Assembly (NCBI GenBank): GCA_046563655.1
Contig: CM102287.1
Location: 5,146,001-5,210,000, forward strand
Direction: 5' to 3'
Origin: Yuukianura sp. NJ FZ-2021
Lineage: Eukaryota
DNA length: 64,000 nt
The stretch's first letter is position 1. Each line of letters begins with the position of its first letter. Below the pieces are notes generated by a model, which searched no databases, was not told the origin of the DNA, and saw nothing but the letters and a program-made list of their open reading frames with translations. Position numbers and translations under genes: made by a program. This document shows positions 3,173-51,400 of this stretch, piece after piece.

Positions 3173-3870
3173 TGTGGAAGTCTGTCTAACAAAGGGATGC
3201 CTTTTCAACATCGATTTGACATTAAACCTTGAAAACCTCTTCAGAAAACCTTGAAAATGATATTAACTGAAAGCTTTTAGTTGAGTAAACAGAAGTTCCT
3301 GAATATTGCAAAAATTTCGGTCATTTTCACACTTTACTAGTATTGAGGACATGAACCAAAATTAAAGCAATTGCATACATAAAAAATTAATGAAATTTTT
3401 TAACGTAATTTCTTAAGTTGAAATTCAGCAAGTGACGACGTGAGCGGTTTTGAATTCAACGTTTTCACTTCAATAATTTTCCAAAGTTTTTTTTTTGGAA
3501 TGTTTAACAATTTTTGATAATTTGATTGTTGGTGTGTGTGGCATTCCTAACTTCCTAACTACGTTCTCGGCCGTACTAGTTGAAGTGGTTCCATGGTCAA
3601 AAACAATTTGGTCAAAAAGTGAGAAGGTCAAAAACACGAAAACATATATTCTAGCCAAACTATTTGCAACGGTTTTCACTTTTTGATCAAATTATTTTGA
3701 CCATTTCAGCTGTATAAGTTGATGAAGCAAATTTCCTCTAGTTTTGCTCTAGGAGTTTCGAAATTTGGAAATTCTAAAAAAGATTTGTGAGATCTGTGTT
3801 TGCTAATTTGCTAAAGTACAGGTTACTGAGTAATTCGCAATTCCCAGCATTTGAAATTGATGTTTTGTTT

Positions 3871-5370: not shown

Positions 5371-5979
5371 TGTGTAAGTCTATTTAGCGAATGGGACTCA
5401 ATTTCGGTTATGGGTTGGGACCAGCACCTAGCATTTTGAAAAACCGTGAAATGAAAATGACATGAATAGAAGCTATTTAGCTAACTAAACAAAATGATCT
5501 CGGAACTTGAAATTGCTGTCACTTCTCACTCATCTACTTTTGAAATTATTTCGAACATAAATTGATATTCAAGCAATTGCGTAACAGCAAAGAAAAATAT
5601 CAAGGAAACGCCCTTGTGTTTGAGCTCAAAAGAATCTTGCCTCGAAAAACTAAAAATTTTGAACTGAATTCAAAAAAATTCAAGGAGATTCGCCCAAAAA
5701 CGATTTTTTTTTAAATGAGTTTAGCATTTTAGCGTATTTCATGCTTCAAAATAGTCTACCCTATTGTTTGTAGCACTAAATAGTGGCGGTACTTTCTGCG
5801 ACAAAGTGTCGTAAAAATGAATTGTGTCATTCACTTTTACAACAATGGATTCTTCACTATTGAAGGTTTTCGAAAGTGGATTTCCAAAATTAATTGCTCA
5901 AAACTTGAAATTGAATTTGAACGCGTTTCACTAGTTTTCAAAAGCCTTTTTCGCAATTCCAACCAACGACAGCACTACT

Positions 5980-12400: not shown

Positions 12401-15400
12401 AACTTGCACTTCGGACACGGGGATCAAAACTTGGTAGCGGATGATTTCCACTTCGGACTTGTCAGCCATCTTGGAAGTGCCACTCTGCAACGACAATTTA
12501 CAAATGTAAACTGATTAACTTAATACAACCATCCATGAATCGATTTGAGTCAAGGTGAATGCTGCTCGGTCGACATTGATCTACAACGTTCAAGTTTTTT
12601 TGAAATACTATTTCGATTCTTTATATAAAATGTACTAGGTAGAATTGGTTAGATTATCGTTGTTGGGGTAGTTATGTTCATAGTTGTTTCTAAAAAACGA
12701 AACCAGAAGGTAGCATTTAAATTTAAATTCGTTTGTTTTAGCCTCAAACTTTTCTATTTTGTTCCTTCTTCTGTTGAATTGTTGTTGGAGAAAGTTAAGT
12801 CAAAAGAACAAGACGAAATGGAGAGAAAGAGCAAAGAACTAATCGTTAATCTCGTCGTTTCTTTACTCAAAACGAGTAAAGTATCCAAGACTTTTGGAAT
12901 TTAGAACAAAGACAGAAGAGAAACGGGGGTTAAACTTTTTTTCTTTCTTCAGCAGAATGAATTTCCTTGTTCTTGAAAAGTGAATTCTAGCAAGAAAAAG
13001 CGCTTTCAAACCCCAGCGGAGCCGGAGCACCCACTTTCCAGTGCCAACTGGCTGGAAAAGTGGAGAAAACAACTTTTGGACGAGAGAGGAAAGAGAAGGC
13101 GATGTAAATAAAAGAAAAGGCTTCGCCCCTGCATAACTTACCATTAATTTCTTCTTGTGTCGCAGACGCTCTTTGCACAAAAACACCACTGCTGTCTTGA
13201 ACACAAAGCACGTCGCATGGAGCTCTAACCCCTTCTTGATCTTGCCTAAAAAGTCGGCAATGTTGAGCCACTCGACGCCTCCGTAATGGAAGAGGTCACC
13301 CGGACTCAGGTCAACTTCCACTTTGGAAGTTTTTTGATGCTGGCGGTAGAGATGCTCGAAGATGGCTCCGTACTCTTCATGTATTCGCTGCATTTCGTTG
13401 ATATGACCAGCCACACCTTGCATTGACTGTCGAGCATCTACAAACGCAAAACAAACAAAAAATAACACTAAAATTTGCATTTACTTAAAAATTCATAGAC
13501 TTTAAACATTTGATAAACGTAGCCCTACACTTTTACAAAGGTGAAACTTTGGTAGAATTTGGAGTTTGTAATGTAAATGGAAAGTTTTGAACCAGAAAAA
13601 TTCAAAATTTGTTTGTAGAGCGAGAGAAAGCAAACTTTCACTTTTGAAAACGAAAACGTAATAATAAGTTTTTGCATTAGTTTCCTGAGGCACTACCGTT
13701 TCTAAACTAGAAATAGAATCTCGCCCTCCCACTTGACAATGCAAATAACTTGTGTCAATATCCCTCTCTTCCAGCCAAATTATTACATCCGACATTCGAC
13801 ATTTACTACACGCTACCGTTATCCTTTTCAATGTAAAAAAGAGAACACGTATTCCATGTAACTCTGGGTAGATATTACATAAATAGATGTTATACAACCA
13901 TCTCTCTATTGAAACAGGTAACAAATGCAAATATTTGCTTGCTCTCAGCTACAATTTTGCTATTCAAAAGCAAAAATGAAAGTAGGAGAAAGCATGCGCC
14001 ATTTTCATTGCTTTTTTTTTGTAGTGAAACAAAAAACGTAACCCTGCGCAAGTTGTTTTTACCATATTTCTGAAAATAGATTTGGAAAGTAAAAAAAATG
14101 TCTTTAGTGAGATTGGAATACACAACTTTTTAACTGTTTTTAATGAAGTTGGAATTTTGTTTTTGATCAAATGGCAGTTGGAACTTACCGAGAAGCGTTT
14201 GGTACTCGGGAGTGTTGGTGTCAACGAGGCTGAGAAGATGTTGTAGCAGCAGAGGGTAGGTCAGTATCCGTTGAATTGGTTTGATCAAATAGGATTCAAG
14301 TGTGTTTGAATGCTGCATGCGTGGATTTCTAGCTGCCAAAAACTGTTGTAGAGCCTGATTTCCTTCTAGCGGATGGAGCAACTTTTGAGCCTTGGAATGT
14401 GAAGCACAAAAGGAAGAGTAGAGCTTGAAATGGTCAGCAAAACTGAGGAACGCCGCAGCAATATTTGCTAGACACGCCTGGGATTTAAAAAAATACATTT
14501 TTTAAAACATTTTTTGAAAGGAAGGCTCAAAAGATGAATTAGCCTTTTGGTATTTAAGTGACCAAGACAAATGAGCAAAAATTTTCTCAATTTTTCATTC
14601 TGAAAGTTCTGCTGCTGTAGGGCAGAGAAGGAGAAAGTTGATCGGCAGAGCGATAGTCGAAAGTGAAACTTTTGAAAAACGAAAGTGGAGTTTTTCAAAA
14701 AGGCGGGGGAGTGAAGTGGAATTTGTTGGATTTTGGTTTCCCATTTCGGGTTTGATCCCTGCTTAAGTCTTACTTTGAACTCGGATGGATGTGTTATTGA
14801 TTCGAGTGAGGAGGGCGTGTCAGTAGTTCCTACTGATGCTTCCAAACTTCGCAGAAATTTCCGTTGAACTGTCACCATTTCTTGGATGTTTCCAAATACT
14901 GCTTCCATTTCTTCAGCTGACAGAAAGTTTTCTTGTCGAAGTGGTTCCAAGTACTGTTCCAAAAGACATGTCAAGTGCTGAAAAACATTGAAAAAAAACT
15001 TTTGAAATTTAGAAACAAAAACAAATGAATTTTTTACAGAAATTTTTGTTCTCAACTTGAATTTCGCAATTTGAACAAAAAAGTGCCAAAAATTATGCAA
15101 ACGAACGTTCATTTTCAAAAAAGCAAAAGTTTTAAGACCCGAAATTTCGGCTATTTGCAAAACACATTGTGGACAACAAGCTCAACCGAGTTTAGCAGAA
15201 TGCAAGCAAGTTTTAAGACAAAGTAGATCCAGTATTTGGGAAGTATTTTGTCCACAGTAGCGGTATTTCATAAAATTTTGAAACTAATTTTTGGTTTTTA
15301 CCTTAACATAGGCTCTCTCCGTTTCCACCAGTTCCAGAATGACTTTCTTCAGTTTCTCTACATCTCTAGAGCCAGTTGGCGTGGATGTTCCGTAGGGATG

Positions 15401-24400: not shown

Positions 24401-27400
24401 CAAACCACCCTGTTATCGAGTATTTTGTTTTTGCCTTATTCAGACAAAATTTCTTGGCCCCGCCGTCCACTCTTCCGTACAAGCTAAAGAATAAAAAACG
24501 CAAAAGCAATCCAACCCAATTTGGACAAAGTACCATGGCCTTAAAAATTCTAGGAAATAAGGCAATGTTTAAAAATTTAACTTTTTGTACTCACACTGAC
24601 CTAAATATTCAATTGACCTTTGAGGTTTGCCTTTCCAGCGGAACGGCTTCTTTATAGAATGCGGTGCTTTAGATGGAGAACGTTTATCCAATACTTTGTT
24701 TCTGGAAAGAAACTACGGTTGGACTGGAATTTTAGTTGAAGCTGAACCAAACAACTATAAAAGGTTGGTTTCAAAACACCGCAAGGCCTGGACATCACAC
24801 TCGTGCATGTCTCCAAAAGAAACTGCAGAGAAAGTAAGTGGAAACGGATCTCTTTTTCCAGAAATCCAGTTAGCGGCAACTTTTTTTTAAAAATGTTTTG
24901 CAGTTGACTCTAGTTGGAATCGACTACGGCTCTAAATCTGGCGGATTGACATTGATGAACAACTCGATTCCGCTGAAGAAGTTTGGGGGCTATGTTAATT
25001 CTAAACGTAAACCAGTAGAAGTACAATGCTTTCCACTTTATACCTATCTGTTGGCACTCGGTAGAACGGAAGTGGATTACTTTAGTCTGGACGTAGAAGG
25101 AGCCGATTTTGAAATTCTAAAGACAATTCCATTCGACAAAGTCATTTTCAAGGTAAAATTTTGGTTTTAGTTTTTTGACCTTCTAAAAAGTAACAAATTT
25201 TGAAAAATTTCTTTTGCTGCGTAGGTTCTGGAAGTAGAAGTTGCATGGGTGAACGAAGGGAAGCAAGCAGTGAGGACATTTTTAGAACAACATGGCTACG
25301 TTTTTGTAAAAGAAGTAGCGGTAGATTACATTTTTGTACACAATTCAGTAAAATTGCCAGTCGGTTTAGTACTTTAGTCCTCGAGACTGAAAATTCTCTA
25401 TTCGTTATTAAAACTTTCTTTTTTGAATTATAAAACTCAATGTAAATAATTCAAAACAGGGACTATGAAAGGTGTCCGATGGTCCTTATGCATTATAATG
25501 GGGGGTATTGTACTTTAAATGCGTAGTGTAAATGCCGGTGTATTTTGGGTGCATGAACTGCGTCAAAATCATGCTCCAGTTCCCAAAATTGTTCATAACT
25601 GTGCGTAATCGACAAAAAACAACGTTGGAGAAACCACATTTGAGGCGAAATGCCTCTGCTAAGCAGGACGTGACATGACACTTCAAAATTTCACAAATGG
25701 TTTGGGATTATAGTTTTATTTTTAATGTTTGACCCTTTGTTTACTGTGAACAAATTGTGTTGCTAATAGCAATTTCGATAACTGAACACAAATGTACGGA
25801 TCCAATCGAACAGCATAAAAGTTGTTTCTATTCCTCATCTGAAGTTGAGTCTAATGGTGAATCCCTTCCAATTTCAATGATAATGTGCTTCCTAATTCTT
25901 ACAATTATTTACTTTTAGGGCATCCAAGTTCGGACACTTTTCAACAAGTTCGAACTTCGAACTCAAAGCACTTTGCTGTCACTTAAACTCCGCGTATTTC
26001 CTGCTTTTCTTTTTACATTCCGGATCACTCTCGGCGACATTTAGAACGTACATTCGGTCTCCTTGCAGTTTGCCACCGCCACAAAAACTAATTTGTATAA
26101 AAAAAAATTGTATCTCCACGAATGAATATTTCCAGACTTTAAATTAATTGAATGGGTCCTTAAAATTTTGCCACCTTGTAATCCAGATTTTTTTTAATCC
26201 AGATATAATGTATGTGGAGATATTTTTAGCGCAAATAATTCTATCCTGGGTTGCTGGAGATATTATTTTATAATTAAATATAATTACGGCAACAAAAATT
26301 CCGTTTCATTTCCCCTGTAACTGAATTTTGAATGGAAAAAGAAAATCAACAAAGGGTCAAACATTAAAAATTGAACTATAAGTACCGCAATTAACGGGCA
26401 CTTCATTTTACCATGCATGAGTGAAATATAGCAGTTAATTCTAACAATTGTAGTTTCTAGATATAAAAACTGCACCTACCGACTCCGGACTTCACTTTAA
26501 TAAAGTGTTCAGTAAGGTAACATTTTTCTTTAAAATTTCAATAAGAACGAAAACCGCAAGTGAACTCCTTGAACCAATTTCTTAACGTTATATAAAAGTC
26601 GAAATTTAAATTGACTCATTGGTACCTTGGAAAAGAAAAATTTCAGATTTCATATTCACGTTTCGGTTCATTGCTGATTGTTTAGTCGGCTGCTTTGCAC
26701 TTGCTATATTTCTGGAGTAACTACGGAACATGCCCATGCCCTTTCACCTATGCACATCCCATCTTATTTATTCTAATAGTTAATGATCTATTAGACGCTA
26801 CCAACAGTGTTCAGAAAGTGTTCAAAAATGGTCCAAAAATCGTCTACGAGCTTCAAATTACGTGTATTGCTCGTCGGTTTCATTCTGTTTTTGGTCACCC
26901 GCTACTTATTTAATATTTTGTGCAAAAATGGTGCACGCTGCACCGATCTCAGCAAATTTTCACAAGATGACCCTGAACTTGTAGAGTGTTTGAAGTAAGA
27001 TTTGTTCAAATTGCTAACTTTGGTAAAAATTTCTTCAAAAAGTACAGTATTAATTGTTATTTCTTTATTTTTGACTCATTTAGACAAAATTTCTTGACTC
27101 TGCCGTCCACTCTGCCGTACAACCTAGAGAATCCAAATCCCGAAAGCAATCCGACGCAATTCGGACAGAGTAGCATGGCCTTAAAAATTCTAGACTATAA
27201 GGCAAGGTTTAGAAATTTAACTTTTTGTGATCATTTGACTTGAGGAGTCAATTGACCTTTGACATTTGTTTTTTCAGAGGAATGGCTTCTTCATTGAATG
27301 TGGAGCCTTAGATGGAGAACTTTACTCCAATACTTTGTTTCTGGAAAGAAACTACGGTTGGACCGGACTTTTAGTTGAAGCTGAACCAAACAACTACAAA

Positions 27401-30400
27401 AACTTGTCTTCAAAACACCGCAAGGCTTGGACATCACATTCGTGCCTTTCTCCAAAAGAAACGGCAGAGAAAGTAAGTGAAAACAGATTCCTTTTCCCAG
27501 AAATCCATTTAACGACATCAGTTTCTTCAAATGTTTTGCAGTTAACTCTAGTTGGAATCGAGTACAGTTCTAAATCTGGCGGATTAACATTGATGAAGAA
27601 CTCAGTTCCGCTGAAGAAGTTTGGGGGCTATGTTAATTCTAAACGTAAACCAGTAGAAGTACAATGCTTTCCACTTTATACCTATCTGTTGGCACTCGGT
27701 CGAACGGAAGTGGACTACTTTAGTCTGGACGTAGAAGGAGCCGATTTTGAAATTCTAAAGACAATTCCATTCGACAAAGTCATTTTCAAGGTAAAATTTT
27801 GTTTTAGTTTTTTGAGCTTCTCAAAAAATGACAAATTTTAAAAAATTTCTTTGCTGCGCAGGTTCTCGAAGTTGAAGTTGCATGGGTGAACGAAGGGAAG
27901 CAAGCAGTGAGGACATTTTTAGAACAACATGGCTACGTTTTTGTAAAAGAAGTAGCGGTAGACTACATTTTTGTACACAGTTCAGTAAAATTGCCAGCCG
28001 GTTTCGTACTCTAGTCGAACCGGTTTCGAGACTCAAAGATCTCTGTTCGTTATTGAAACTTTCTTTTTTTGTATTATAAAACTCAATGTAAATAATTCAA
28101 AACAGGGACTATGAAAGGCGTCCGATGGTCCTTTTGCATTATAACGGCGGGTATTTTACTTCAAATGCGTAGTGTAAATTTGCCGGCGTATGTTGGGTGC
28201 ATGAACTGCGTCAAATCATGCTTCAGTTGCCAAAATTGTTCATTACTGTGCATAATCAATTGACAAAAAAACAACATTGCAGAAAACGCATTTGAGTCGA
28301 AACGCCTCTTTGCTAAGCAGGACGTGACATGACACATGTAAAAATTTTACAAATGGTTTGGGATTAAGTACCGCAATTAACGGGCACTTCATTTTACCAT
28401 GCATGAGTGAAATATAGCAGTTAATTCTAACAATTGTAGTTTCTAGACATAAAAACTGCACCTACCGACTCCGGAATTCACTTAAATGATGTAAGTGTAC
28501 AATATAAGGTAACATTTTTCTTTAAGATTTCAATAAGAACGAAAACGTAAGTGAACTCCTTGAACCAATTTCTTAACGTTATAAAAAGTCGAAATTTTAA
28601 TTGACTCATTGTTACCTTGGAAAAGAAAAATTTCACATTTCATGTTTACGTTCTGGTTCATTGTTTACGACGGCTGCTTTGCATTTGCTACATTTCTGGA
28701 GTAACTACTGAACATGACCTTTGACCTACGCACATCTCATCTTATTCATTCTAATATTTAGTACTACTCAGGGTTGGTAGAGGATAGGGTTAACCGTTCC
28801 GGAGGCTTTTTGAAAAAAACAAACTTTTTGAGCTGGTTGAATTTTTTCAACCAGCTTTGTTTGTCGTAGAAACAATTTTAAATAAATTAATTTTTAGTAC
28901 AGTGCGTTTCTTAAAATCCTTGAGGATTAATTTGCTACAATTAAAAGTAAGTGTGTGAACAACATATTGAAAACTGAAAACTCTGAGGTCACCGAGTGAA
29001 CTTATGACAGACAGCCCAATGCAAGTAATATTTTGTTGGAAATGGCTTGATAAGCTGATTCGGAACAGAATTTATAAAAGAATTTCTGGAAGAATTGGTA
29101 ATTTCAAAAAGGATAAACTGCGCAGTTTGTGCGCATTTTATGCGAAGTTTAGAATTTATTTTGGCTTTGACCTTTGACCGGGGAGGTCAAATGTCAAATG
29201 ACCAGGGGAGTTCGAGCTATCCCGTCAGGCACTACCATCTCCCAAAGGAGATGTCCCAAAACCCTGTCGAAACGGTACCCGGTGCTATTCGAATGAAATG
29301 TTAACCAGTTGTTAGAGTCAATGTTGGGGTCATATTTGCAAATTTTCAGCCCCCTAGAAACGATAGGTCACGGGTCACGGGGGTCGAAGGTCACCATGTC
29401 ATCCTATGACGACCCCATGCAAGTAGCATATCGTTGGAAAAGTCTCGATCCACTGATTCAGAAAATGTATACATGTCAATATTGATGACGTAAGACAACG
29501 AAGTTATGGCGCCGGAAATTCGAAATCGCTAGTCCAACCGCTTCCGAATTTTGACTTCCTTTGACCCCGAGTAACCCGTGACCTATCGTTTCTAGGAGGC
29601 TGAAAATTTGCAAATATTACCCCAACATTGACCCTAACAACTGGTTAAAATTTCATTCGAATAGCACCGGGTACCGTTTTGATAGGGTTTTGGCTCATCT
29701 CCTTTTCATTCGAATCAAAAAAATTAAGGGGAAACGCAAATTGTCGATTTCACAAATATGCTCCGACTTACTTAAGTTCATTTCGTAATTCATCGCTTAT
29801 GAAGATTCGCTCTGTATATTGAAATTCAAAATTCAAAATCGTCTTAGCAACAGATTCAGTTAGCTGATTGAAGTCAGCCAGCTCAAAAAGTTTGTTTTTT
29901 TCAAAAAGCCTCCGGAACGGTTAACCCTATCCTCTACCAACCCTGGTACTACTGAAGATCTAGACGCTACCAACGGTGTTCAGAAAGTGCTCAGAAAATG
30001 GTCCAAAAATCTTCTACCAGCTTCAAATTGCGTGTATTGTTCGTGGGTGTCATTCTGTTTTTGGTCACCTTCTACTTATTTCCTACTTTGAGCCAAAACG
30101 GTGAACGCTGCGCCGATCTCACCAAATTTTCACAAGATGACCCTCAACTTGTAGAGTATTTGAAGTAAGATTTGTTCAAATTGCTAACTTTGAAAAAATT
30201 TCTTCAAAAAGTACAGTACTAATTGTTATTTCTTTATTTTTGACTCATTTAGACAAAATTTCCTGACTCTACCGTCCACTCTACCATACAACCTAGAGAA
30301 TCCAAATCCCGAGAACAATCCGACCCAATTCGGACAGAGTAGCATGGCCTTAAAAATTCTAGACTATAAGGCAAGGTTTAAAACTGAAATTTTTGTACTC

Positions 30401-33400
30401 AAAGTAACTTGAGGAGTCAGTTGACCTTTGACATTTGTTTTTTTAGAGGAATGGCTTCTTCATTGAATGTGGAGCCTTAGATGGAGAACTTTATTCCAAT
30501 ACTTTGTTTCTGGAAAGACAGTACGGTTGGACCGGACTTTTAGTTGAAGCTGAACCAAACAACTACAAAAACTTGTCTTCAAAACACCGCAAGGCTTGGA
30601 CATCACATTCGTGCCTTTCTCCAAAAGAAACGGCAGAGAAAGTAAGTGAAAACAGATTTCTTTTCCCATAAATCCATTTAACGACATCAGTTTTTTCAAC
30701 TGTTTTGTAGTTAACTCTAGTTGGAATCGAGTACTACCAGTCAAAATCTGGTGGATTGACATTGATGAAGAACTCAGTTCCGCTGCAGAAGTTTGGGGGC
30801 TATGTTAATTCTAAACGTAAACCAGTAGAAGTACAATGCTTTCCACTTTATACCTATTTGTTGGCACTCGGTCGAACGGAAGTGGACTACTTTAGTCTGG
30901 ACGTAGAAGGAGCCGATTTTGAAATCCTAAAGACAATTCCATTCGACAAAGTCATTTTCAAGGTAAAATTTTAGTTTTAGTTTTTTGACCTTCTAAAAAG
31001 TTACAAATTTTGAAAAATTTCTTTGCTGCGTAGGTTCTGGAAGTAGAAGTTGCATGGGTGAACGAAGGGAAGCAAGCAGTGAAGACATTTTTAGAACAGC
31101 ATGGCTATGTGTTTCTAAAGCAAGTAGCGGTGGACTACATTTTTGTACACAATTCGGTAAAGTTACCAACCGGACTCGTCCTCTAGTTTAACTTATTTTC
31201 ACAAAGAAATGTAAAAACGTCCGAAAAAGTTTGCCCACTGCCATAGCAACTAAACACTAACTCAGTTTGTTACGTTATTACAAAAAAAAAATAAAATAAA
31301 AAATAAAATCTCAAATTCCACAGTTTTGAACAAATTCCGTTACACGGTCCATCGCTTCATCTTTACGGGTTTTGGATTTTGGGTTGCTGAGTTACTACAG
31401 GGCAGAGAAAGTTAGATTTTGACAAAAATTTTGGACAAAAAGTGTCCAAAATGATGCAAAGGCCTTCCACTGCCTACAAACTGCGTATAGTGTTCATCGT
31501 TCTCATGCTGTTCCTGACCTGCCGCTACATATTTTTCGTTAGTAAGACTAAAAACGACGATATCGAAACGCGGAAACATTTGTACTATAATTCTCATCTC
31601 CCATGCACCGATCTCAGCAAATTTCCACAAGACCATCCCCAACTTGTGGCCTGTCTCGCGTAAGTTTTCAGTTTCAGAAAAACATTGTCAAAACTAGTTT
31701 GTATTTGTGGCATTTTTAGCCAAGATTTCTTGCGTCCGCCGTCGAATGAACCATACGACCTGGACGATCCAAATCCAGAAAGCAATCCATCACAATATGG
31801 ACAAAATCTCATGGCCTTGAAAATTCTCGGGAATAAGGTGAATGGAACTTACAAACATATATTCAACTGACCTGAGCAGAAAAATGACCTTTGACCTTCA
31901 CGTTTTCAGCGAAATGGTTTCTTCATTGAATGTGGAGCTTTAAATGGAGAATTTTTGTCTAATACTTTATTTCTGGAAAGAAACTACGGTTGGACCGGAC
32001 TTTTAGTTGAAGCTGAACCTAACAACTATAAAAGCTTGTCTTCAAAACACCGCAAGGCCTGGACATCACATTCGTGCCTTTCTCCAAAAGAGACGGCAGA
32101 GAAGGTAAGTGGAAACGGATTCCTTTTCCCAGAAATCCAGTTAGTGACAACTTTTTTAAAAAAAAAATTTCCAGTTAACTCTAGTTGGAATCGACTACGG
32201 TTCTAAATCTGGTGGATTGACATTGATGAACAACTCAGTTCCACTGAAGAAGTTTGGGGGCTATGTTAATTCTAAACGTAAACCAGTAGAAGTACAATGC
32301 TTTCCACTTTATACCTATCTGTTGGCACTCGGTCGAACGGAAGTGGACTACTTTAGTCTGGACGTAGAAGGAGCCGATTTTGAAATTCTAAAGACAATTC
32401 CATTCGACAAAGTCATTTTCAAGGTAAAATTTTGGTTTTAGTTTTTTGACCTTCTAAAACATGACAAATTTTAAAAAATTTCTTTGCTGCGTAGGTTCTG
32501 GAAGTAGAAGTTGCATGGGTGAACGAAGGGAAGGAAGCAGTGAAGACATTTTTAGAACAACATGGCTATATTTTTCTAAAAGAAGTTGCAGTAGACTACA
32601 TTTTTGTACACAATTCAGTAAAGTTACCAACTGGATTCGTCCTCTAGTCTAACTTTGACAAAGAACTGTAAAAAAGAAGTAAAAACGTCCGAAAAAAGGG
32701 AAGATCTAATGATTTGAAATTAAATGTTTTGCAGTTAACTTTAGTTGGAATGCATTACGTTCTGAATTTTCCTGCACTGACACCGAATAACTCGATTCCG
32801 CTTCGTCGTCAGTATCTTGGCTATGTCAATTCCGACCATAAACAGATAGATGTCCAGTATTTCCGCTTTATACGTATCTTCTAGCACTACGTCGATCGGA
32901 AGTGGACTACTTGTGTCTTGACGTGAAGGATGCCGATTTCCAAATTTTGAAAACCATTCCGTTCGACAAAGTCATTTTCAAGGTAAATTCAAACCTTTGT
33001 TTAAATTTTATGAACTTTTTAGAAGAAAATATCAAAATTTTGAAAACTTGTTTTTCTTGTCAGGTTGTACAAGTGGAAGTTGCTTGGCTGAATGAAGGCA
33101 AGGAAGCATTGCGGAAGTTTTTAGAAGAACGTGGATACGTTTTTCTAACAAAAGTTGCAGGTTTAGATTAGATGTTTGTGCACAATTCCGTAAAGGTGCC
33201 AGACGGTTTTGCACTTTAGTCAAAGTACATTTAGTTTTAGAATATTCAGGGCAAAAATTATGCCAAAAAACTACTAATGGTACAAACTTTTTCAATTTTT
33301 TAAAAAACATTTCCAAAAACACAAGTTTTTTTTTTAAAGAAAGGAGTAATGTCTTCCAGCTGCTGCTGTGCTACAAATGGAAATCAATGCAAAATCACGA

Positions 33401-36400
33401 TTTGGAAATATCGAGATCGTGATTCGGATAGCTTTTATAGAATTTTCTGGACTCCTGCCAAAATCCGTCGTGTTCTTGTTCGTGTTGACACTACTAATTG
33501 AAACACTTTCCATTTCTAGTATTTGCCAATCAATTAATTCCGTGAACATTTTCAACCTAAAAGCCTCCCCCCTCATTGAACTGAGAAAGAAAGCGCTTAA
33601 AGTCTTTACGTTTTGTGACCCAGCATTAGGTTCAACCACTTAGATCAGCACAATTTCTGTTCAAATACAAATTCAGTCTCAGTACCTTCCTAAAAGCACT
33701 AACCACCACACCCAATCCTAACACCGCTTCCAGAAAGTACAAAATATTTTTGCTATGTACGCTTATGCTAGTATATCACTACCATCAGTTGGTAACCACC
33801 ACGTGGTTACAAAAGTAAACTTTTGCCGTACTTCAACCCAGTTCTTCTACTAAGACACTCATGTTTTTCGAAAATGATTTTTTCTTCTTCTCTGAAGCTT
33901 CAGTACTCTCGTTAGTGTTTCAACGCACGAAATTTTTTTAGAATTTGTTATGTTTTAATTTTCAAAAATGCTGGATTTCAATTTTTGAAAGTCCTCACGA
34001 GAGCACTTACTATTCTGAACTGGATTTCGGGATTTCCATTGAGAAATGGAACAGCAATAGCCTTCACAAGGGTATTTGAGGTTGAGTGTTGATGTTGAGG
34101 CGTAAGATCAATACCACGAGTCTCGTAATATTACAAGTGAAAGTACAGATAGAAAGTACTTGAGCAATATTTGAAATAGATTGAGTTTCAGTCCAAGAAA
34201 ACATTTTTAAAAAGAGAAGGAAGGAACTATGCCTAGGAAATATCGAACCATTATTCAGTTCTTTTCTTTAGAAATATTTCAAAACTGCATCCATATCACC
34301 AACCTCCACCATTTTTCAAAGTATCCATCCACGCTTTTCATCATCAAAAGAGAAAAACAGCATCCACGGTGTGGTTTCAATTGTAAACCAAACAAAATAG
34401 AAAACAGACAACGAGAAATAGTACTTCCTGTGCTTATGAAAAGTGAAAACGAAATTTGAAAAGGAAAGGATGTTCCATGTGTATAGTAATGGACCACAAT
34501 AACCGTCTGCTTGTCACATCTCCAACTTCTATTCAGAGACGCCTCAAGGAATCGATTTCCAGGAACCTAGGAATTCCTTCGCTATTTCTATAAATCCTGT
34601 ACCCTACTTTCTCCTGGAGTGTTCTGGTTATTATTCTGGTTAGACTGGAATTGTTATCCTGCTTCCATGGACAAACGACTCAATTTCAAATGATGGCTCT
34701 CTCGACGAGGATCTTCCAGTTTTCAAACACGTTTGGTTCAGTTGAGCTTTTCAAAATCATTTCTGGACAAGATGGTTCAACGGCAAGAGTGTTTTGGACA
34801 AACTCGAGTTTTAACGTGGACGATAGTTTGAGTAGCTGAGGCGTTTTTTAGCTTAGGTTTCAGTACAGCCTTTAAGGGCAAGATGAAAGGACAAGTGAAG
34901 ATCGTTGAAATAATTGTCACCTAACTGAAAGATTTCAAGATCTAAACTGACTTTTAGTCTAAAGTACAAACCAGTTTTGCCGTTTACAGAAAGCCACCAC
35001 ATACGGCGTGTCAAAATTTTGTGTGAGTTCTGTGCCAGTAGGTTACATTTTAAAATGTTGTTGTGAAACAGTCAGTTTTCCATAATAACGAAAGTTCATT
35101 TGAGTTCATAGTCAAATTGTCATTGCTAAAAATAGATCATTGTTAGACTTTTCTTAACAAACACAACGTGCGTACAACTTCTCTTTTGTTGTAATTAGAG
35201 CTTTTGTCTACAACTTGTCTTTTGTTGTAATTAGACGTTAAGCCTACAAATGATTTCCATACATACAAAGTAGGGTAGAATTCGACTTTGTTTTACTCCG
35301 CTGGTTTCCGGCTGAGACCCTATAAAAAGGGCTCAGTCCGGCCAGCAAGATTCATTCTGTTTTCTGCTCTTGACCTCTGGTCAATAGGACTTAGTGTCCT
35401 AACTCTCATGCCTTGTCACAAACTTTGTCCGTTGAATAAAGTTCATTAACCTTTCATTATTGCAAAACTGCAAAGAACAATAGTAGTGGAAGATTTGTTT
35501 CTTTTATTTAACCATTTCACTACATTTGGTGGCACGAGCTGCTGAAACCTATGGCTTCCACAGGAAGCGAAAATGCTCAAACAATGACCTCTGGGTCAAC
35601 GCATGCGTTGCCCAGAGTTAATGACCTTAAGGCGGTGGTCCGTTCTGTGCCTCTATTCGATGGCAAATCGAACGTTGACCTGTTGACCCTGAGGTTGGAT
35701 GCCCTATTGGCGTCAGGTGCTTTGGACAGCGTTACGCTGATCCTAAACTTCCATCAATTAATGGAAGGGGAAGCACAGGAATGGTGGCGCTGGTCACAGG
35801 CCAAGTTCATTCGTGACTTGACCTTGGCCAATGCAGCCACAAGATGGACAGAGCTCAAAGCTGAGCTCCGATCTTTTTATGACCCCGATGAGGTCAAATT
35901 AGAAATGAAGAAAAAATTAAAGGGAATTCTTCTTGTTAACTGCGACACTCCATCTGAGTATGTCGCCAAACGACTGTCATGTCTGTCGGTCATTGACCCC
36001 AACATGTCAGCCGAAAAACAAGTTGAAAAGCTGATTAAGGGCTTACCAGTTTCCATGAGAAACATGATGACCCTTGTTGACCCTAAGTCACCTGCCGAAT
36101 TTTTGCAAAAACTAAGAAAATGCGAAAAACCTACGTTTCAAGACAGACGAGGTCAATTCCAAAATTCAAATTCAGGTAGTTCCAGTTCTGGAACACAAAA
36201 ATCTAAACCAAATTCAAATTCCAGTGATGGGAAGGAAACACCTTCAACTTCAGACACTGATTTGAATAAAAATTCAAATCAGCATTTCAAAAAACGAAAA
36301 TTTTGCACATTTTGCAAAAAGCCAGGTCATACATTGGATGACTGCTGGCACAAAAACAAAACCAAATCGGGAAGTGCTTCTTTCTCCTCAGCAGTTTTAC

Positions 36401-39400
36401 CCGAGGAACAAACTGAGGAGACAAACACAAAAAACTAATTGTCACGGGTGATTACGCACACCCCAATTTAAAAACAGCGTACAATTTCAGTTTACAAAAA
36501 GTAAACAATTCTAAAATAGGCAAAAATACTTTAATATTTGAAAATTCAAATTTTTCAAAAAATCAAAATAAGTCAAATACTAGCGAAAGTTACGCTAGTA
36601 AAGTAAAACAAAATTTAAATAAAATCAATTATTTTACGGAATCCGTTCCGGAAACCTCTGTAGAGGGCACTAAAGTGCAAGTACCGTTCAGAAAATGGCG
36701 GTACGGTCCAAAACTTTTTACCGAACTTACGTTCGGTGACAAAACTTTTAAAATTCAAGTTGATGAAGGAGCTAACTTTAGCAGCATCGGCTTGGACTTT
36801 CTGAATGACCTCAAAGGTCAAATTCACAAAAGATACAAAATTCCACCTGTCATAGTCAATACAGCCAACAGCCAAACAAGCATAGATGAAATGGTTGAAT
36901 TGAAGTTCCACTTCAACGGTGTTCTCACAATTTGGGGATTTCACATAATGAAGGGACTCAAGCCAAAAAAATGCTACTTGGGACTGATTGGACTACAAGA
37001 GACTTAAATAAACAGGAAATTACAAATATTGATGATGAAATACCAATTAATAATTGTCCTAAAAATGAGGAAAAGCCTCAACCAAATAAATTCAAACTGA
37101 CAAAAACAGTACGGCTTCAAGCCAGAATGACCTCCAAGGTCGCTGTTAAGTCAGAGAAAATTATTTCCGGTTCAATTATTATGAATCCCAACATGACACT
37201 TTATGAGACACAGGCCTTACTTCAACCTTATGTCTATTCAATTGTTAGGGATCATGAAACCGAATTATGGATTACAAATTTGAATGACTTTGAAGTGACC
37301 TTGAACAAAGGCACAACAATTGCTTATGGCGAAATTTGTCCACCAAAGAAAAACATTTATTCATTTACTGAAGATGGCGACACCATCGATTCAGGTGAAC
37401 AAACTTTTGGAAATTTTGAGCCAAAACTAGGAGACAATTTGTCCAATGATGAGAAAAAAGAAATGAGAAATTTGATTAATCAATTTCCAACGCTATTTGC
37501 GGAAGATGAGACCGAATTAGGGAAAACAAGCCTCGTTCGTCACCAAATTGACACGGGCACAAATCCTCCAATTAGGAATTATCCCTATCGAGTTTCCTAT
37601 CCACAAAGAAGTAAAATTAAGGAAAAAATAAATAAGCTTCTTGAAAGTGACATTATCGAAGAATCAATTTCTCCTTGGTCATCTCCAGTAATACTCGTTC
37701 CTAAAAAGGACGGAAGTTCAAGACTGGTGATTGACTATAGAAAATTAAATGCGATTACCAAGAAAAACTCTTATCCATTGCCTAGAATGGACGATGCATT
37801 GGACAGACTGTCAGGTGCCAAGTACTTTACTGTACTAGATTTGCTATCTGGGTTCTACCAAATTGAGTTAGACCCAAAAGACAAAGAAAAAACGGCATTT
37901 ATAACTCCTGACGGCCTTTACCAATTTAAGAGACTACCTATGGGACTCTGTAATGCTCCATCTAGTTTCCAATATTTAATGGATTTGGTTTTATTAAACT
38001 TGAAATGGAATATTGTACTCGTTTATTTGGATGACCTTGTTGTTTGGGGAAGAACTTTTGAGGAGCACAATTCTAGACTCTTCACTGTTCTAAACCGACT
38101 GAAAGAAGCGGGCTTAACCCTAAAAATCAGCAAGTGCATTTTTGGAACCAATAAACTTAATTATCTGGGCCATATTATTTCAGAAAATGGAATTCAAGTA
38201 GATCCGGATAAAACAATTGCAATTGATAATTTTCCAATTCCAAAAAATCAAACCGACATTAAATCATTTCTGGGAATGTGCGGTTACTATAGACGCTTCA
38301 TCCAAAATTTTGGTAGAATTGCAATCCCCCTCACTCTTTTAACAAGAAAAAATCAAAAATTTGACTGGGGTGAAAAACAAAATGAAGCCTTTCAAAAATT
38401 AAAATCATGTCTGGTCAAAAGTCCAATTTTGTCATACCCAATGGACAATGTCCCAACGGAAGTGCACTGTGATAGCAGTGGGTATGGGATCGGGGCAACC
38501 CTGGTCCAAATCCAAAATGGAAAACCCTGCGTCATAGCTTACGCTAGCCGAAGTATGACAGAAGCGGAACGAAAATATTCGGGACCCGAACAAGAATGTC
38601 TAGCAGTAGTCTTTTCTGTTAAAAAGTTTAGGCCATACATTTATGGAACCAAGTACACAGTGTACACTGATCACTATGCCCTAAAATGGTTGTTTTCCAT
38701 TAAAGATGTAAATAGTAGGCTGGCTAGATGGTCAATTACACTGCAAAATCAGGACATGACTATTGTACATAGACCAGGGAAAACTGCGAATGACGTTGAC
38801 CCCTTGTCACGTTACCCAGTTGACCCACCAGAGAGCATGGACAGCTCTGAAGTTCTTGTTTTGGATGGCGTCCCTGACTTGTTTACAATAAACGAATTAA
38901 AAGTCAAACAGAGATCTGACCACTTTCTAAAATCGATTATTCTTTACATTGAGTCCGTGGAAAACGAAGAGTATAATATACCTCAACCTAATGTCAAACA
39001 ATTACAGGACTATAGTTTACAAAATGGAATTTTATTGTTTCCGAATTTTGCACCTTCAGGCAACCAATGGAAAATTGTTGTTCCAAAATGCTTAAGAAAA
39101 GCTGTTTTAGATTCTCTGCATTGTGGAGATTTAGCAGGCCATTTTGGAATTACGAAAACTTGGGAATCAGTCCGAAGTAGGTTTCATTGGAAAGGAATGT
39201 ACCGTGATACAAGAAAATATATCTTAGGGTGTGAAGTTTGTCAGAAATTTAGGAAAAGAATTGGTCCTGAGTATGGTTTGATGCAAAGTTTTCCTGAGGT
39301 GACGAAACCCTTCGAAAGAGTGGGAATTGATTGGATTGGACCCTTTGTAAAGTCAGAAAATGGCAACAAATATGCAATTGTTTTCATTGACCACTTCACC

Positions 39401-42400
39401 AGATACTCAGAAACTGTTGCCGCACCAAGTGCGACAGCAGAAGAGGTGGTAAAAGCCATTAAGTCCAAGATTATTTACACTCACTCTCTTCCAAAGGAAT
39501 TTGTGGTTGATAGAGGAAGACACTTTACTGCAAACTTAGTAAAAGCTGCAGCAGAAGAATTTAGCTTTAAGCTAAAATTCACAGCTCCATATCATCCACA
39601 AGCCAATGGAATGACAGAAAGATGCAACAAAACTGTCAAGAAAATTATTGCCAAAACGGTTGATGAAAACCACAAAAACTGGGATTTATGCTTAGAGCAA
39701 GCGACATTTGCTTACAACATTAAAAAGCATTCATCAACTGAATTTTCCCCATTTTATTTGGTTTTTGGTAGAGAAGCAGTTTTACCGATAGATTTGCAGC
39801 TTCCGAATTTTAATTCTGACCAAGAACTAGATTTTGAAGAATTAGAATACAATAGACACCAAGCTCAATTAAAATCCAAAGAAAATCATGAAAAGTCAAA
39901 ATCCCGAGTCAATAAGAATAGGCATCAACATGATTTTCAAGTTGGCGAACTTGTTTTAAGGTCAAAACCTATTAAAAAGAAAGGCCTCTCAAAAGCGTTC
40001 ATTGCGCAAAAAGATGGACCTTACAAAATTTTAAAACAAACAAGTCCAGTCAATTACGAAATTAAAAAACTAAATAGTAAGTCAAAAAAAAGTAATTGTG
40101 CATGTCAGAGATTTAGAACATTTTAATTCAGAATTTATGCCCAGCTCTGACAGTGAAAGTAGCGAAAGTGAGTTCACTGATGAGCTCAGCTAAAAAGTGA
40201 AATCTCAAGATAAGCACAAAGATGCACCAAAAGTTTCTGTTTCATCGCCATTGGGAAGAGAGAAGAAGCAGTCAGTGAGTACAGCAACTCCACTCGCTCC
40301 ACTCATTCTCATGCACGATCAGCTGAAACTTCTGATTTTAAGTCACCAAAAAGTTACAAAAGTAAACATTCAAATCATAACAAGAGTATTTCCAGTAGGG
40401 AAATTAGCGGACATTCGTCCAGGTCATTGCCCAGACGAGTAAGTCACGTAGACTCAGACAGTGACAGTGCTGGTGATAGTGAAGTGATTGACCTCGACCC
40501 TATAAATAGGACTGAAAATGAAGGAGACGACTTTGTCTCAATTTCATCGTCCTCCGAGGAAGAAATCTCTGCTCCACCATCTCCTCCACCAAGGGTCACT
40601 GCCCCTACCAGAAGATCCACACGTACAAGGAAGGCTCCAGACCGCTACGGTGATTGGCAGTATGACTAGTGAAATTGACATGGACACAGAGGAACAGCTT
40701 CTTCACATTGATGAAGACAATGGTAAGTTCATTTTCTTAAACTTAGATTCCTCTTTTGTGTCAAAGGTCAACATTTCACTGTTAATCATATTACGTCCTG
40801 CCTGTGACACTCTGTGCAGTGTCATGCAATGAACGGTCATTGCACCTTTCTACATTTTCTGAAATCAACATTCACTAATATTTTCTTTTCTTTTTCTAGG
40901 TAATTCCGTCTCCGAGCATCTCCTGTCCACTCCGATGTCACCGATGTCCGTCAACACCACTTCGTCCACCATTCCGGTTCCCATTCCGTCTACTTCAAAG
41001 GCTCCTTCCGTGCCTCTACTCATCAATTGCAACCCGCCTGATGGGAAGACGAACTTTGACCGGTGGAGGATTCCTAAAAAACAAACGGTGACGACGACAT
41101 TGCCATTGACCGGAGATACACGGGAGAACCATAACCAAACAACTGCGCCTGTCAGACGACCCTTCAACTTCATGCGGATGTCGACTGCCCTGCCTCCACC
41201 TGCTAGACGACCTAACTTCATTCGTCAGCCCCAGCAGAAGTCATCTGGAAAACCAGTCGTGGTCCTAGCCGATGTCAAAGACCTCAAGGCAGCCGTCGCA
41301 TCCATGACATCTCAAACCCCCCAACGACGTCGTCCTCGTCGATGCTTCTCCTGTCACCGCTACGGTCACAAGGCCAAGGACTGCTTAGTTCAACGACCCC
41401 GACTCGCGATCTCAGGAGAGTCGCTTCCCTAAGGAGGGTAGGATGTTGTGAAACAGTCAGTTTTCCATAATAACGAAAGTTCATTTGAGTTCATAGTCAA
41501 ATTGTCATTGCTAAAAATAGATCATTGTTAGACTTTTCTTAACAAACACAACGTGCGTACAACTTCTCTTTTGTTGTAATTAGAGCTTTTGTCTACAACT
41601 TGTCTTTTGTTGTAATTAGACGTTAAGCCTACAAATGATTTCCATACATACAAAGTAGGGTAGAATTCGACTTTGTTTTACTCCGCTGGTTTCCGGCTGA
41701 GACCCTATAAAAAGGGCTCAGTCCGGCCAGCAAGATTCATTCTGTTTTCTGCTCTTGACCTCTGGTCAATAGGACTTAGTGTCCTAACTCTCATGCCTTG
41801 TCACAAACTTTGTCCGTTGAATAAAGTTCATTAACCTTTCATTATTGCAAAACTGCAAAGAACAATAGTAGTGGAAGATTTGTTTCTTTTATTTAACCAT
41901 TTCACTACAATGTTCTTTCTTTTCTTAAGTTTTCATCGCAGTTTCGTAATCTACCTGTAGTACCACACTAAATCTCAAGTTAAAGGAAGATTTTTTGCTT
42001 GAGTTTGAATTTTGAATTTACTTTTGCATGCACTACGGCACTGCCCGAATGACACTTTACGGATGTCAAATCGAAATTGTATCAAATATCATGCGTAAAA
42101 AGATGTGCCAATCTAAAAATTAAGACTTTGAACTTAACCTAATGTAGCCTACGGTAACGACTAACCTAAACGGAAGAAGCAAAAAGTTGACACTTACGGA
42201 TTCGATGGCTTTGTCCAGCCGAATGATTTCTTCCTGGAGGAGGTGCAGTGTCCCTGTTTTTCCACGGTGTCGAGCAAAGGCTGCTGCGCAGGCCCAGTGA
42301 ATGCTGTGAACCCAACTTTCCAATTCAACTTGACATGGAGCCTGAAAAATCGAAACAACAAAAATAGAAATTTTAAATTTCGAAAAACATCAAATGTCAA

Positions 42401-48400: not shown

Positions 48401-51400
48401 CAGCAACTTATTTCCTTTTACTAATTTACCGCAACGTATTTTCTCTCGACTTTTTTTTCTTCCTGTTTTGAACTGCACATGCTCAGTGCAGGTCTAACGT
48501 TGGTGCGTGACTTGAAAAATAAACCGGGAAAAGTCAACGTCCACCTCAGGAAGTGACTCAAGTTTCCAAAAAACCGAGAAAAACTCAATGCCAAATGTTC
48601 GTTAGCCTTTAGCCACAAAAGTTAGGTTTATACAAGTTATGTTAGTGCTCTCAGGCTATTTTTTGGATAGAGTTAAGTTAGCGTCTACTTGATGGTGACA
48701 GTTTGCAGTCTGAAACGTGATAGGTTACGCAAGATTCAAATTTCATAGACCACTTTTCGTTTTTTTCTTGTGTATTTACTTTCAATGGGGATTCAAATTT
48801 CAAAAGTTCTTAGAATGAAGAAACTGAAAATACAAAACTGACAAAAATTTATTTATAACTTTCATAAATTGGATCCAAAACCGTAAGATAAAGTTAGACT
48901 TTGGAAAGTATGGAAGATGGCTTTCGTTTTCGAAAAGGGAATTCCAAACCACGACAAAGTTTAGCATTCCGTTCCCTCTCGATTACATAACTTTCAAAAG
49001 AAAATGTACGATACACAACAAGCTCTCAGTTAAGTTAGGCTAGTTTTGAACCAAACCCACAACCATGTTCTCTCTACAAGGCCCCACTGGACACATGGAG
49101 AGGACGCAAGTAATTCTGGAAGGAGAAAGTTTGTCTATAAAATACCAAAAATGACTTTCTCTCCACAAGGTTTACACACGACAAGGGAGGAAATATTGTG
49201 GAATTTGTGGAAGGATGAGGAAAACTTGAAAAAAAAACTGTTCCCCCGCCTGCCACCAAAATCTGTGGCACTAAACAGTTGATTGGATCGAAGAGAAAGT
49301 GGAAAACAAACAATAAATAGAACTTTCACCAATTGGTTTTTCAAAAAGCAAACAAACAATAGCTAAACCATAAAATCCACACAACTCCAAATCCATCGGC
49401 ATTCTTCCCATTGAATAGCGTATGGGTTTCTAAAAAACCTAATGTGACAGTCTTGAATTCTTTGCATTCGAAAAAAAGTTTATAAAATTCAAAATAGCAC
49501 CTTCACGAAATCTGTATGTTGAAATTTTTAGTCTACGTAGATTGCAGTAATAAAAATTTCTGGCGTGGTTTGCCAATTTTCTTCTTTTTCCTTGTTTTTT
49601 TTTAATTTTATAATTTTGGAAAGCATTACTAGTCTTTGTAGCAATCGGCAGTCTTTAGGCTCGGGAAAAACATTAACTTGAGAATTCATCAAAATTTTGA
49701 ATCCTTTTTAAAAAGAATTCTGAACGCCGTGGTTTCTACTGTAGACAAGTGCTAAAACACAGTTTCAATGTCAATATGAGCGTAGAAATACGTAAATTAC
49801 CTTTGCAAGAAAGAGGACATTGCATTCTTGTGGTTGGACATGAGGCCACGAATGCGCATGTTCGTGCTTCTTGAGCCCCCGAACATCATGGAACTCATGA
49901 GAACAGTCACATTTAGTAGCATTTTCATCTTCACGTGACTGGACCACTCTACGAGCCCAATTGATGACTGTGGCCCAGTCAGGACTCCTTAGAATGAGTT
50001 CCTGTTGTTTCCGAGGGTAAGGGTACGTGTAGTACTGCTCAGAAGATTTATTACTTAAATTAGACACTGGGCGGGAAACAGGTTCTTCATGTGGACCCTG
50101 GGCACAAGTCCCTGGACACACAGACTCTTGGTAGAAATAAGTGTTATTGCTCCCTGCCGCAGGAACGGCGGCTGTGTAGTACTGGTCCCCACCCGCCTGA
50201 CCCCCACTGTCAGGGTCAGGGTGGCGGTGGTAGCGGACCACCGGAGTAAAGGCTCCACCGCCCCTGCCCGGTGGAACTCCACGTACAAATGGACTTGCAC
50301 CCCGCCCTGCTACGCTGTAGTGCGCAAGCGTGGCATAGTAAGTCGTCGAAGCCTCTTGCCCCCCTCGCCCCTGACCTTGATGCCCCCCGACCCCTGCACA
50401 GGAACTAATAGTTGAGCCTGCAACGGACGAATTGCCGGAAGGAATGCTCCCACCACCCCCATGGAGTCGGCCATTGAACTGACCTTGAGGTGGGACAACA
50501 CTGCTGGTGATGGAACTAGCATCGTCCCCACCCCCAGCCCCAGTTCGGTTTTCCCACGAACTTAAAACGTTTGAGACGAAGGTGTAGAGCTCCTGGATGG
50601 AGTCATAGTGTTGAAGGGGTTGCTGGGGTCGAGGTCCACTGCGTCCAGCTTGTTGTTGAGTTAGTTGCAAATGCTGCAACTGCTGACTCAGTTGCAGTTG
50701 GTGCTGAAACTGTTGGCCCAATTGCTGTTGCTGCTGTTTATGATGCTGCTGCAACAACTGTTGACTGAGCTGCTTTGGCTGCAATTGCTGACCCTGCTGT
50801 TGCTGCAATTTCTGTTGACCCTGTTGCAGTTGCTGCTTCGGCTGCAATTGGTTCTGACCTTGCTGTTGTTGTAACTGCTGCTGCTGACCTTGCTGTTGTT
50901 GCAACTGCTGCTGACCCTGTTGTTGCTGACCTTGCTGTTGCTGCTGTTTCTGCTGCTGCGGATATCGAATAAGCGTATTCGGAAGAAGTCCTCCAGAACT
51001 TCCGGGATTGCTCTGTTGAGAGTATCCCTGTGCAGAGGCCTGCGGCTGTCGGAATGCCGCTGGCGACGGATGTTGCGGCGGCTGACCTTGACCAGGAGGA
51101 CCTCTGCTTGGGAAGCTGGTGGCACTGGGAGCTTGTGGGGCTCGAACTGGCGGCTGGGCTCTTGCGGTCTGGTTTGGGCGAGGGCAGGCTCGACGTGGGT
51201 TCTGGAACGGTTCCACCTCAACGGGAGGTGGGGCCTTTGGAGTGGTTCGGTTAGGGCGAAAGATGATGTTGACACTGACGTATGTGGCTACAGCAGAAGG
51301 GGAACGGAGTTTGGCAAGCCAAATAAATTGGTATCTCAGGCACGATCTCTGTCTTTGTCTCACTTAAGGAAGACGGAGTTCCTTCCCTTGCCAATCCACG

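Follow-up and report, generated by a model that had tools for sequence, protein, structure and literature searches.

The 64,000-nucleotide stretch of the Yuukianura sp. NJ FZ-2021 genome analysed here (contig CM102287.1 of GenBank assembly GCA_046563655.1, positions 5,146,001 to 5,210,000 of the forward strand; referred to below as the window) carries, at 35059-41909, a complete Ty3/gypsy long terminal repeat (LTR) retrotransposon inserted in an animal genome. The space between its pol gene and its polypurine tract harbours a third open reading frame (ORF), ORF3. On balance, ORF3 is probably a genuine accessory gene for a nucleic-acid-binding protein, made from a subgenomic RNA that undergoes splicing. 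The features of this region are as follows.

40214..40669, + strand: Ser-rich C-terminal pol tail, which forms an ORF of its own in this copy and ends with the stop TAG 40667-40669
40662..40722, + strand: exon 1 of ORF3 (ATG, position -3 being A), with 20 acidic codons and the first base of a split Gly codon
40723..40899, + strand: candidate U2-type intron, 177 nt, 34% G+C, with GTAAGT, CACTAAT, a pyrimidine tract and TAG
40900..41432, + strand: exon 2 of ORF3, 177 codons and the stop TAA 41430-41432, 55% G+C
41343..41384, + strand: CCHC knuckle of the spacing C-X2-C-X4-H-X4-C, with RRRPRR just before it
41431..41443, + strand: polypurine tract AAGGAGGGTAGGA, overlapping the ORF3 stop and preceding the 3' LTR

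ORF3 fits exactly into the gap of about 770 bases between the pol stop and the polypurine tract. At its 5' end, the sequence TATGACTAG includes both the ATG (40662-40664) and the stop codon of the pol tail, and the short exon that follows encodes eight acidic residues and no basic ones. The putative donor (ATG/GTAAGT at 40723), the CACTAAT at 40871-40877, 23 nt 5' of the intron end, and an acceptor of 18 pyrimidines in 20 positions followed by TAG/G provide the consensus 5' splice site, branch site, pyrimidine tract and 3' AG of a U2-type GT-AG intron at the proper spacing. The length of the intron equals 59 x 3 nt, the ORF3 frame is kept across the join, and the only two ORF3-frame stops between 40662 and 41430 (40830-40832 and 40860-40862) both lie inside it. 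Exon 2 is rich in Ser, Pro and Thr and then becomes basic, with the motifs RRPFNF and RRPNF. The first-pass annotation, made from the letters alone, had proposed an intron-containing third gene with a second zinc knuckle in the env position of a Gypsy element, and all of the sequence features it relied upon (the ATG at 40662, exon 1, donor, CACTAAT, acceptor, exon 2, knuckle and polypurine tract) were recovered at these positions.

Such an arrangement is hardly expected by chance. An in-frame combination of these splice signals should occur between 3e-6 (strict) and 1.6e-3 (loose) times, which upholds the earlier claim of a 177-nt intron with consensus signals and an in-frame join; the figures are post hoc, and the underlying signal frequencies were taken from both strands of the rest of the window, real host introns included (8.7e-5 per base for G/GTAAGT, 8.7e-6 per base for an acceptor of 18/20 pyrimidines plus a branch-like CTRAY). 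In the strict version the donor had to lie in the 168 bases before the first stop and the acceptor in the 70 bases after the second, in the right phase. The frame of exon 2 is open for 189 codons (40863-41432, with the terminal stop only), the other five frames containing 7, 7, 10, 8 and 13 stops, and an open frame of this length in any of the six frames appeared in just 8 of 2000 shuffles. The intron has a G+C content of 34%, which jumps to 55% in exon 2.

The variation within the family provides a further line of evidence. Many contigs of the element family were obtained from four public DNA runs (X1-X4; two samples, two studies, two organisms), and the differences scored are the best-supported 40 of 900 between this copy and the family contigs, 35 of them within reading frames. 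Among these best 40, the synonymous fraction is 1/1 in gag, 2/2 in the protease frame, 24/28 in pol and 4/4 in exon 2 of ORF3. The four listed differences in exon 2 (40982, 41006, 41399 and 41405) are third-position changes which are synonymous in the ORF3 frame alone; every other frame would suffer at least two amino-acid changes. With 25.9% of the possible changes in exon 2 being synonymous (0.259), the probability of four out of four among those listed is about 0.0045. In addition, a contig from X1 (record 8, 40914-41192) that is approximately 12% divergent, with 33 differences, shows a net length change of 6 bases and an intact frame. The listed variation, although a small sample, points to pol-like purifying selection on exon 2. 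A contig from the second organism (X4 record 31, 40489-40969) spans both intron ends with the intron retained, and a contig from the other organism (X2 record 15, 40674-40845) bridges the donor; hence, family copies keep the intron. ORF3 thus appears to be conserved in the family, a point which the first-pass annotation had named as a test. The intron-less junction 40722 to 40900 is absent among the 13 joints listed, which does not demonstrate its absence, since contigs lose rare variants.

The predicted spliced product comprises 197 residues, with 27 Lys and Arg versus 17 Asp and Glu. Its maximum Kyte-Doolittle mean over 19 residues is 1.08, indicating no hydrophobic or membrane segment, and the Pfam search of ORF3 returned no family above threshold and no Env family, in agreement with the earlier statement that the protein is not an Env. 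Of the claim of a second zinc knuckle, the C-X2-C-X4-H-X4-C spacing stands; the Pfam gathering cut-off, however, is not reached (15.0 vs 20.8 bits), although the pattern is complete and its score is on par with that of the knuckle of the element's own gag (15.0 vs 14.4 bits). The protein is predicted by modelling to be intrinsically disordered. Neighbours in the protein Atlas, with scores of 0.81-0.84, belong to gag/CCHC clusters and serve as a lead only.

Several candidate relatives of ORF3 were discarded. The most promising of them, a 107-residue protein (P0007) that is 42% identical over 51 residues, is located on an 853-bp contig without context, and the metagenome locus L001 proved to be an unrelated gag-pol element matching at its gag knuckle only. 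A search of viral contigs with ORF3 and pol gave no hits. The possibility raised in the first-pass annotation that ORF3 is a captured gag fragment found no backing either, the similarity to the element's own gag being not significant in a two-sequence comparison (best E 0.042), as are the short strings common to both (DLKA.V and SVPL...DGK.N).

The ATG of ORF3 overlaps the end of pol, which deserves a closer description. In related pol proteins a long Ser-rich tail is followed by a basic end motif (e.g. ...RRTKRTIKKPVRYGFDEYF in P0013 and P0135), and the same motif closes the tails of P0013, P0017, P0018, P0019 and P0135. Because the tails of these relatives share the motif, TAG 40667-40669 is, as judged from sequence, the true pol end in the family, as the first-pass annotation had assumed, and pol of this copy is interrupted, its tail forming a separate ORF. 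Two breaks disrupt the pol frame, one at the A-run 40083-40091 and the other near 40280 (that is, between about 40084 and 40280), with a stop at 40191-40193 in the frame in between. The protease-pol frame is also interrupted at the A-run 36965-36972; in P0135, protease and reverse transcriptase (RT) are encoded by a single ORF. One-base length variants were present among the family contigs at both break places (40084 and 40280), each in both length forms. A broken frame in a copy with identical LTRs and a polymorphic insertion may mean that the element was mobilised by proteins of other copies or that the homopolymers contain assembly errors. A 42-nt mini-intron (40168-40209), which would skip the stop at 40191, was considered as well and is without support.

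A candidate promoter for the ORF3 transcript lies within the pol tail.

40496..40510, + strand: internal copy of the LTR TATA core, GACCCTATAAATAGG

The 15-mer GACCCTATAAAWAGG occurs at exactly three sites in the window, namely at 40496-40510 and once per LTR, there containing the TATA box; 0.02 occurrences are expected. The likeness of the internal site to the LTR stops at this core. An ATG at 40518 sits 10 nt past the internal TATA, and the following ATG on this strand is 40662, so that a transcript started about 30 nt past 40496-40510 would have 40662 as its first AUG. Alternatively, ORF3 may be started by re-initiation after the overlapping pol stop, or at 40518 or 40935. A retrovirus-style splice from the leader to ORF3 is unsupported, since no GTRAGT occurs from the 5' LTR to 40049 (35059-40049) and hence no strong donor near the 5' LTR, and no LTR-proximal donor of this kind, which the first-pass annotation had proposed to look for, was recovered.

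The remaining parts of the element are listed below.

35055..35058, + strand: left copy of the target site duplication (TSD), ATGT, with the same four bases at 41910-41913, after the 3' LTR
35059..35524, + strand: 5' LTR, 466 bp, TG...CA, 100% identical to 41444-41909
35173-35249 and 41558-41634: 36-bp unit in tandem, 2.1 copies, in U3 of each LTR
35316-35330, + strand: LTR TATA core GACCCTATAAAAAGG, within the 5' LTR
35424-35429, + strand: AATAAA, within the 5' LTR
35527..35539, + strand: putative primer-binding-site-like sequence TGGTGGCACGAGC, starting with TGG two bases 3' of the 5' LTR
35551..36438, + strand: gag with a CCHC knuckle (Pfam Retrotrans_gag, E 3.3e-07)
36417-37007, + strand: protease frame, part of 36417..40126
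36429-36435, + strand: heptamer A AAA AAC directly 5' of the gag stop TAA (36429-36438 in all), where the protease frame (-1) overlaps
36899-40126, + strand: pol frame with RT, RNase H and integrase
41444..41909, + strand: 3' LTR, 466 bp, 100% identical to the 5' LTR

The Pfam matches in pol are RVT_1 (4.9e-33), RT_RNaseH (1.8e-34), Integrase_H2C2 (5.2e-20) and rve (8.3e-13), and the order Retrotrans_gag followed by protease, RT, RNase H and integrase is that of Ty3/gypsy, which substantiates the earlier assignment to Gypsy; LTRs, TSD, primer-binding site, polypurine tract and gene order are all as in Metaviridae. The knuckle of gag itself scores 14.4 bits with zf-CCHC, under the Pfam cut-off of 20.8. 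The A AAA AAC heptamer before the gag stop is presumably a classical -1 ribosomal frameshift site, and the tandem 36-bp block in U3 may be a duplicated enhancer-like block. At E <= 1e-50, 4226 relatives were found; the nearest pol proteins in a collection of 5.8 billion (P0013 and P0135) show only 59% identity, and the named relatives, with 40-46% identity, are from arachnids. Contigs from X1 and X3 represent an empty-site allele in the same organism, connecting 35043 with 41909 with 14 other letters in between. The identity of the LTRs, together with the existence of this empty site, makes the insertion very recent, and it is still polymorphic. No second copy of the element was found within the 64-kb window. 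A search against Rfam gave two matches only, both sub-threshold, one of which (mir-71, 41850-41926, over the end of the 3' LTR; 27.1 bits vs the gathering value of 50, E 0.026) is probably due to chance.

The host is an animal, and the window also carries Cys-loop receptor, Tiam1-like RhoGEF and FkbM-type methyltransferase sequences in addition to other features.

1-5379, - strand: three uninterrupted ORFs in tandem, encoding Cys-loop ligand-gated ion channels (Neur_chan_LBD and Neur_chan_memb); lengths 378 codons (truncated by the end of the window), 515 and 502
12038-15181, - strand: Tiam1-like RhoGEF of the host (exons); one intron (GT...AG, ~380 nt) at 12486-12866
27263-27841, + strand: ORF of an FkbM-type methyltransferase
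30402-32987, upstream of the element: direct repeats with a spacing of ~1461 bases, the copies being 86-95% alike
49771-51363, - strand: Gln-rich ORF of 530 codons without a Pfam family

The interpretation of ORF3 as an accessory gene has to be weighed against a number of observations which speak against it. The composition of exon 2 is unusual: its G+C content is nearly flat over the codon positions (0.53/0.54/0.57), and the G+C content at third positions (GC3) is 0.57, compared with 0.32 in pol and 0.34-0.47 in the host ORFs of the window; both properties fit a foreign origin or a weak codon structure. The knuckle remains below the zf-CCHC (PF00098) cut-off of 20.8 bits, with an E value of 0.028 on a 43-residue piece, and the single-sequence AlphaFold2 model of the protein shows two short helices, the rest being unstructured (predicted local distance difference test 50.8, predicted template modelling score 0.14). 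Word-based searches with exon 2 returned no homologues, either near or at longer lengths, and phmmer against 1.84 billion representatives gave seven matches, generic knuckle or low-complexity ones only, which align mainly over the knuckle. The selection signal consists of four sites from the best 40 of 900 differences, and the 141-nt ATG gap, with P about 0.09, is weak evidence. The leader, as noted, has no GTRAGT donor, the pol frame of this copy is broken, and the public runs listed for the element are DNA only, with no RNA run among them. Finally, the genomic RNA carries the intron too and would have to escape splicing.

The odd composition may be read as the mark of a passenger, i.e. the intron and exon 2 might be the 3' end of a host CCHC gene that was taken up as DNA or as unspliced RNA and plays no role in the element. 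The intron is canonical, exon 2 differs from pol (overall G+C 0.55 vs 0.37, in addition to the GC3 given above), and no retroelement homologue was found. The GC3 of exon 2, however, exceeds that of the host ORFs of the window too, no host-like homologue was detected among the 1.84 billion representatives, and no second copy exists in the window; moreover, ORF3 runs from the pol stop to the polypurine tract, and four synonymous differences out of the four listed would not be predicted for a neutral passenger. A capture origin is also compatible with a present function, and a roleless passenger is considered unlikely. Another explanation dispenses with the gene altogether: ORF3 would be a stretch of C-rich 3' untranslated region that happens to be open, and the signals resembling splice sites would serve RNA processing instead of protein production (for example, through U1 binding or through pyrimidine-tract proteins that tune polyadenylation). 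The flat codon-position composition, the lack of a family above threshold and of homologues, the disordered model and the clustering of donor-like hexamers can all be brought forward in its favour, yet the open frame is rare in shuffled sequence and unique among the six frames, no frame but that of ORF3 makes all four listed differences synonymous, and the knuckle shows the full pattern, no worse than in gag. This explanation seems very improbable.

It is also conceivable that exon 2 is real and that the 5' end of the gene is different, with a start at 40935/40944 or 40518, or with joins from upstream donors that would provide Pol with a knuckle C-terminus. The interval 40050-40750 contains five GTRAGT hexamers (40077, 40168, 40275, 40439 and 40723) where 0.45 are expected; none of 2000 dinucleotide shuffles reaches five, and the preceding 4991 bases contain none. 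In the pol frame valid at their positions, the donors at 40077 and 40168 match the phase of exon 2. Further in-frame ATGs are present upstream (40518) and downstream (40935 and 40944), and the variation data for ORF3 concern exon 2. On the other hand, two donors in phase out of four is near the 1.3 expected by chance, and the same interval is rich in AGT serine codons (26 AGT in 701 nt), which explains part of the hexamer cluster. A splice from 40077 would cut the C-terminal domain of integrase (Pfam match 1040-1064), the end motif of the tail is conserved in relatives, and position -3 is A for the ATG at 40662 but C for those at 40935 and 40944. A different 5' end is therefore judged improbable.

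The accessory gene expressed from a spliced subgenomic RNA remains the favoured interpretation, and on this interpretation the space between pol and the polypurine tract would hold a real third gene of the retrotransposon family, the body of which is exon 2. Its product, a disordered protein rich first in Ser, Pro and Thr and then in Arg and ending in a knuckle, would be a nucleocapsid-like nucleic-acid binder. The spliceosomal intron 40723-40899 would take out the two in-frame stops and link exon 2 to the acidic exon 1, the messenger most likely being a subgenomic RNA begun about 30 nt past 40496-40510, with its first AUG at 40662. Without leader and primer-binding site, this RNA could not be copied back into DNA, and the full-length genomic RNA would remain unspliced; this may be the reason for the presence of the intron in the DNA copies seen. 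From these features we infer the splicing, the promoter, the start codon and the RNA binding, as well as a role on the RNA of the element, which might be to chaperone or package it, or to export the intron-bearing genomic RNA from the nucleus or protect it. RNA folding is unremarkable (z-scores: intron -1.8, exon 2 -1.4). A bolder version of this scheme envisages an active family with a two-RNA programme as in a complex retrovirus, though of a different build, with an internal promoter within pol copied from the LTR TATA core, a disordered protein from spliced RNA (acidic head, arginine-rich stretch and knuckle) that recognises the intron-bearing genomic RNA and promotes its export, packaging or protection, and a donor cluster used for alternative joins or for U1-dependent control of poly(A) addition in the 3' LTR; it is possible, though rather doubtful.

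Several known systems bear some resemblance to ORF3. Rev, Rex, Rec and Rem are small accessory proteins made from spliced RNA which have an arginine-rich RNA-binding stretch and act on the intron-bearing genomic RNA; none of them is known to have a zinc knuckle. No homology of ORF3 to these proteins was found, and no fold resembling a response element stands out in the intron or in exon 2, as the folding z-scores given above indicate. Like the nucleocapsid of Ty3/gypsy Gag, ORF3 ends with C-X2-C-X4-H-X4-C, preceded by a basic stretch, but it stands alone after pol and without a capsid domain. The genomic copies of Ogre, a plant Ty3/gypsy element of legumes, reportedly retain a spliceosomal intron which lies between protease and RT and is removed from part of the transcripts; in that case the intron is said to be inside gag-pol and in a plant, whereas here it is found in a post-pol accessory gene in an animal host. 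The donor of Env mRNA is located in the 5' leader, in contrast to the present element with no GTRAGT in 35059-40049.

Errantiviruses (gypsy, ZAM) and retroviruses express Env as a third ORF from a spliced subgenomic RNA, as described in general terms elsewhere (PMC10309623). ORF3 shares the post-pol position of Env; Env, however, possesses a signal peptide and a membrane anchor, whereas the hydropathy of ORF3 does not exceed 1.08. According to the same paper, the CERV protein of Cer1, a Ty3/gypsy element of C. elegans, is encoded by a post-pol non-Env ORF within a spliced mRNA of five exons. CERV is needed for the export of the unspliced genomic RNA, which keeps its splice sites; the protein has no homologues outside its own clade/genus and contains a Cys-rich putative zinc site (PMC10309623). 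By analogy, CERV would be the closest functional precedent, and the Rev-like role in export or packaging suggested by the first-pass annotation appears reasonable. The two proteins nevertheless differ in their descriptions: CERV has 517 aa and five exons, the first ones shared with gag, while ORF3 would have 197 aa and two exons, both of them post-pol, and CERV has folded H, M and G domains with a C4-type loop, while ORF3 is predicted to be disordered with a CCHC knuckle. In the MDG1 group of Drosophila elements, which are env-less Ty3/gypsy elements, the available portion of a preprint describes two small accessory ORFs, sORF1 and sORF2, the former being nuclear and the latter located downstream of pol in 7 of the 22 Lepidoptera consensus sequences that have it (bioRxiv 10.1101/2025.03.14.642691). 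In contrast to ORF3, sORF2 is membrane fusogen-like, and in that portion no knuckle or intron is described for either sORF.

The “complex” retroviruses are set apart from simple retroelements by their accessory genes; among LTR retrotransposons, such genes are understood in a few cases only, namely Env, Cer1 CERV and the MDG1-group sORFs. In the literature searched, a limited library, no description was found of a post-pol CCHC gene with an intron or of an intron-split accessory gene of such kind. As the family is present in high copy number, is common to two organisms and includes a polymorphic insertion, the proposal is directly testable with RNA of the host. If it is true, the post-pol gene of this family would contain an intron of its own, encode a terminal knuckle of the nucleocapsid type and perhaps be driven by an LTR-derived promoter, which would represent a new way for a retrotransposon to make a regulator from the same DNA while its genomic RNA stays unspliced.

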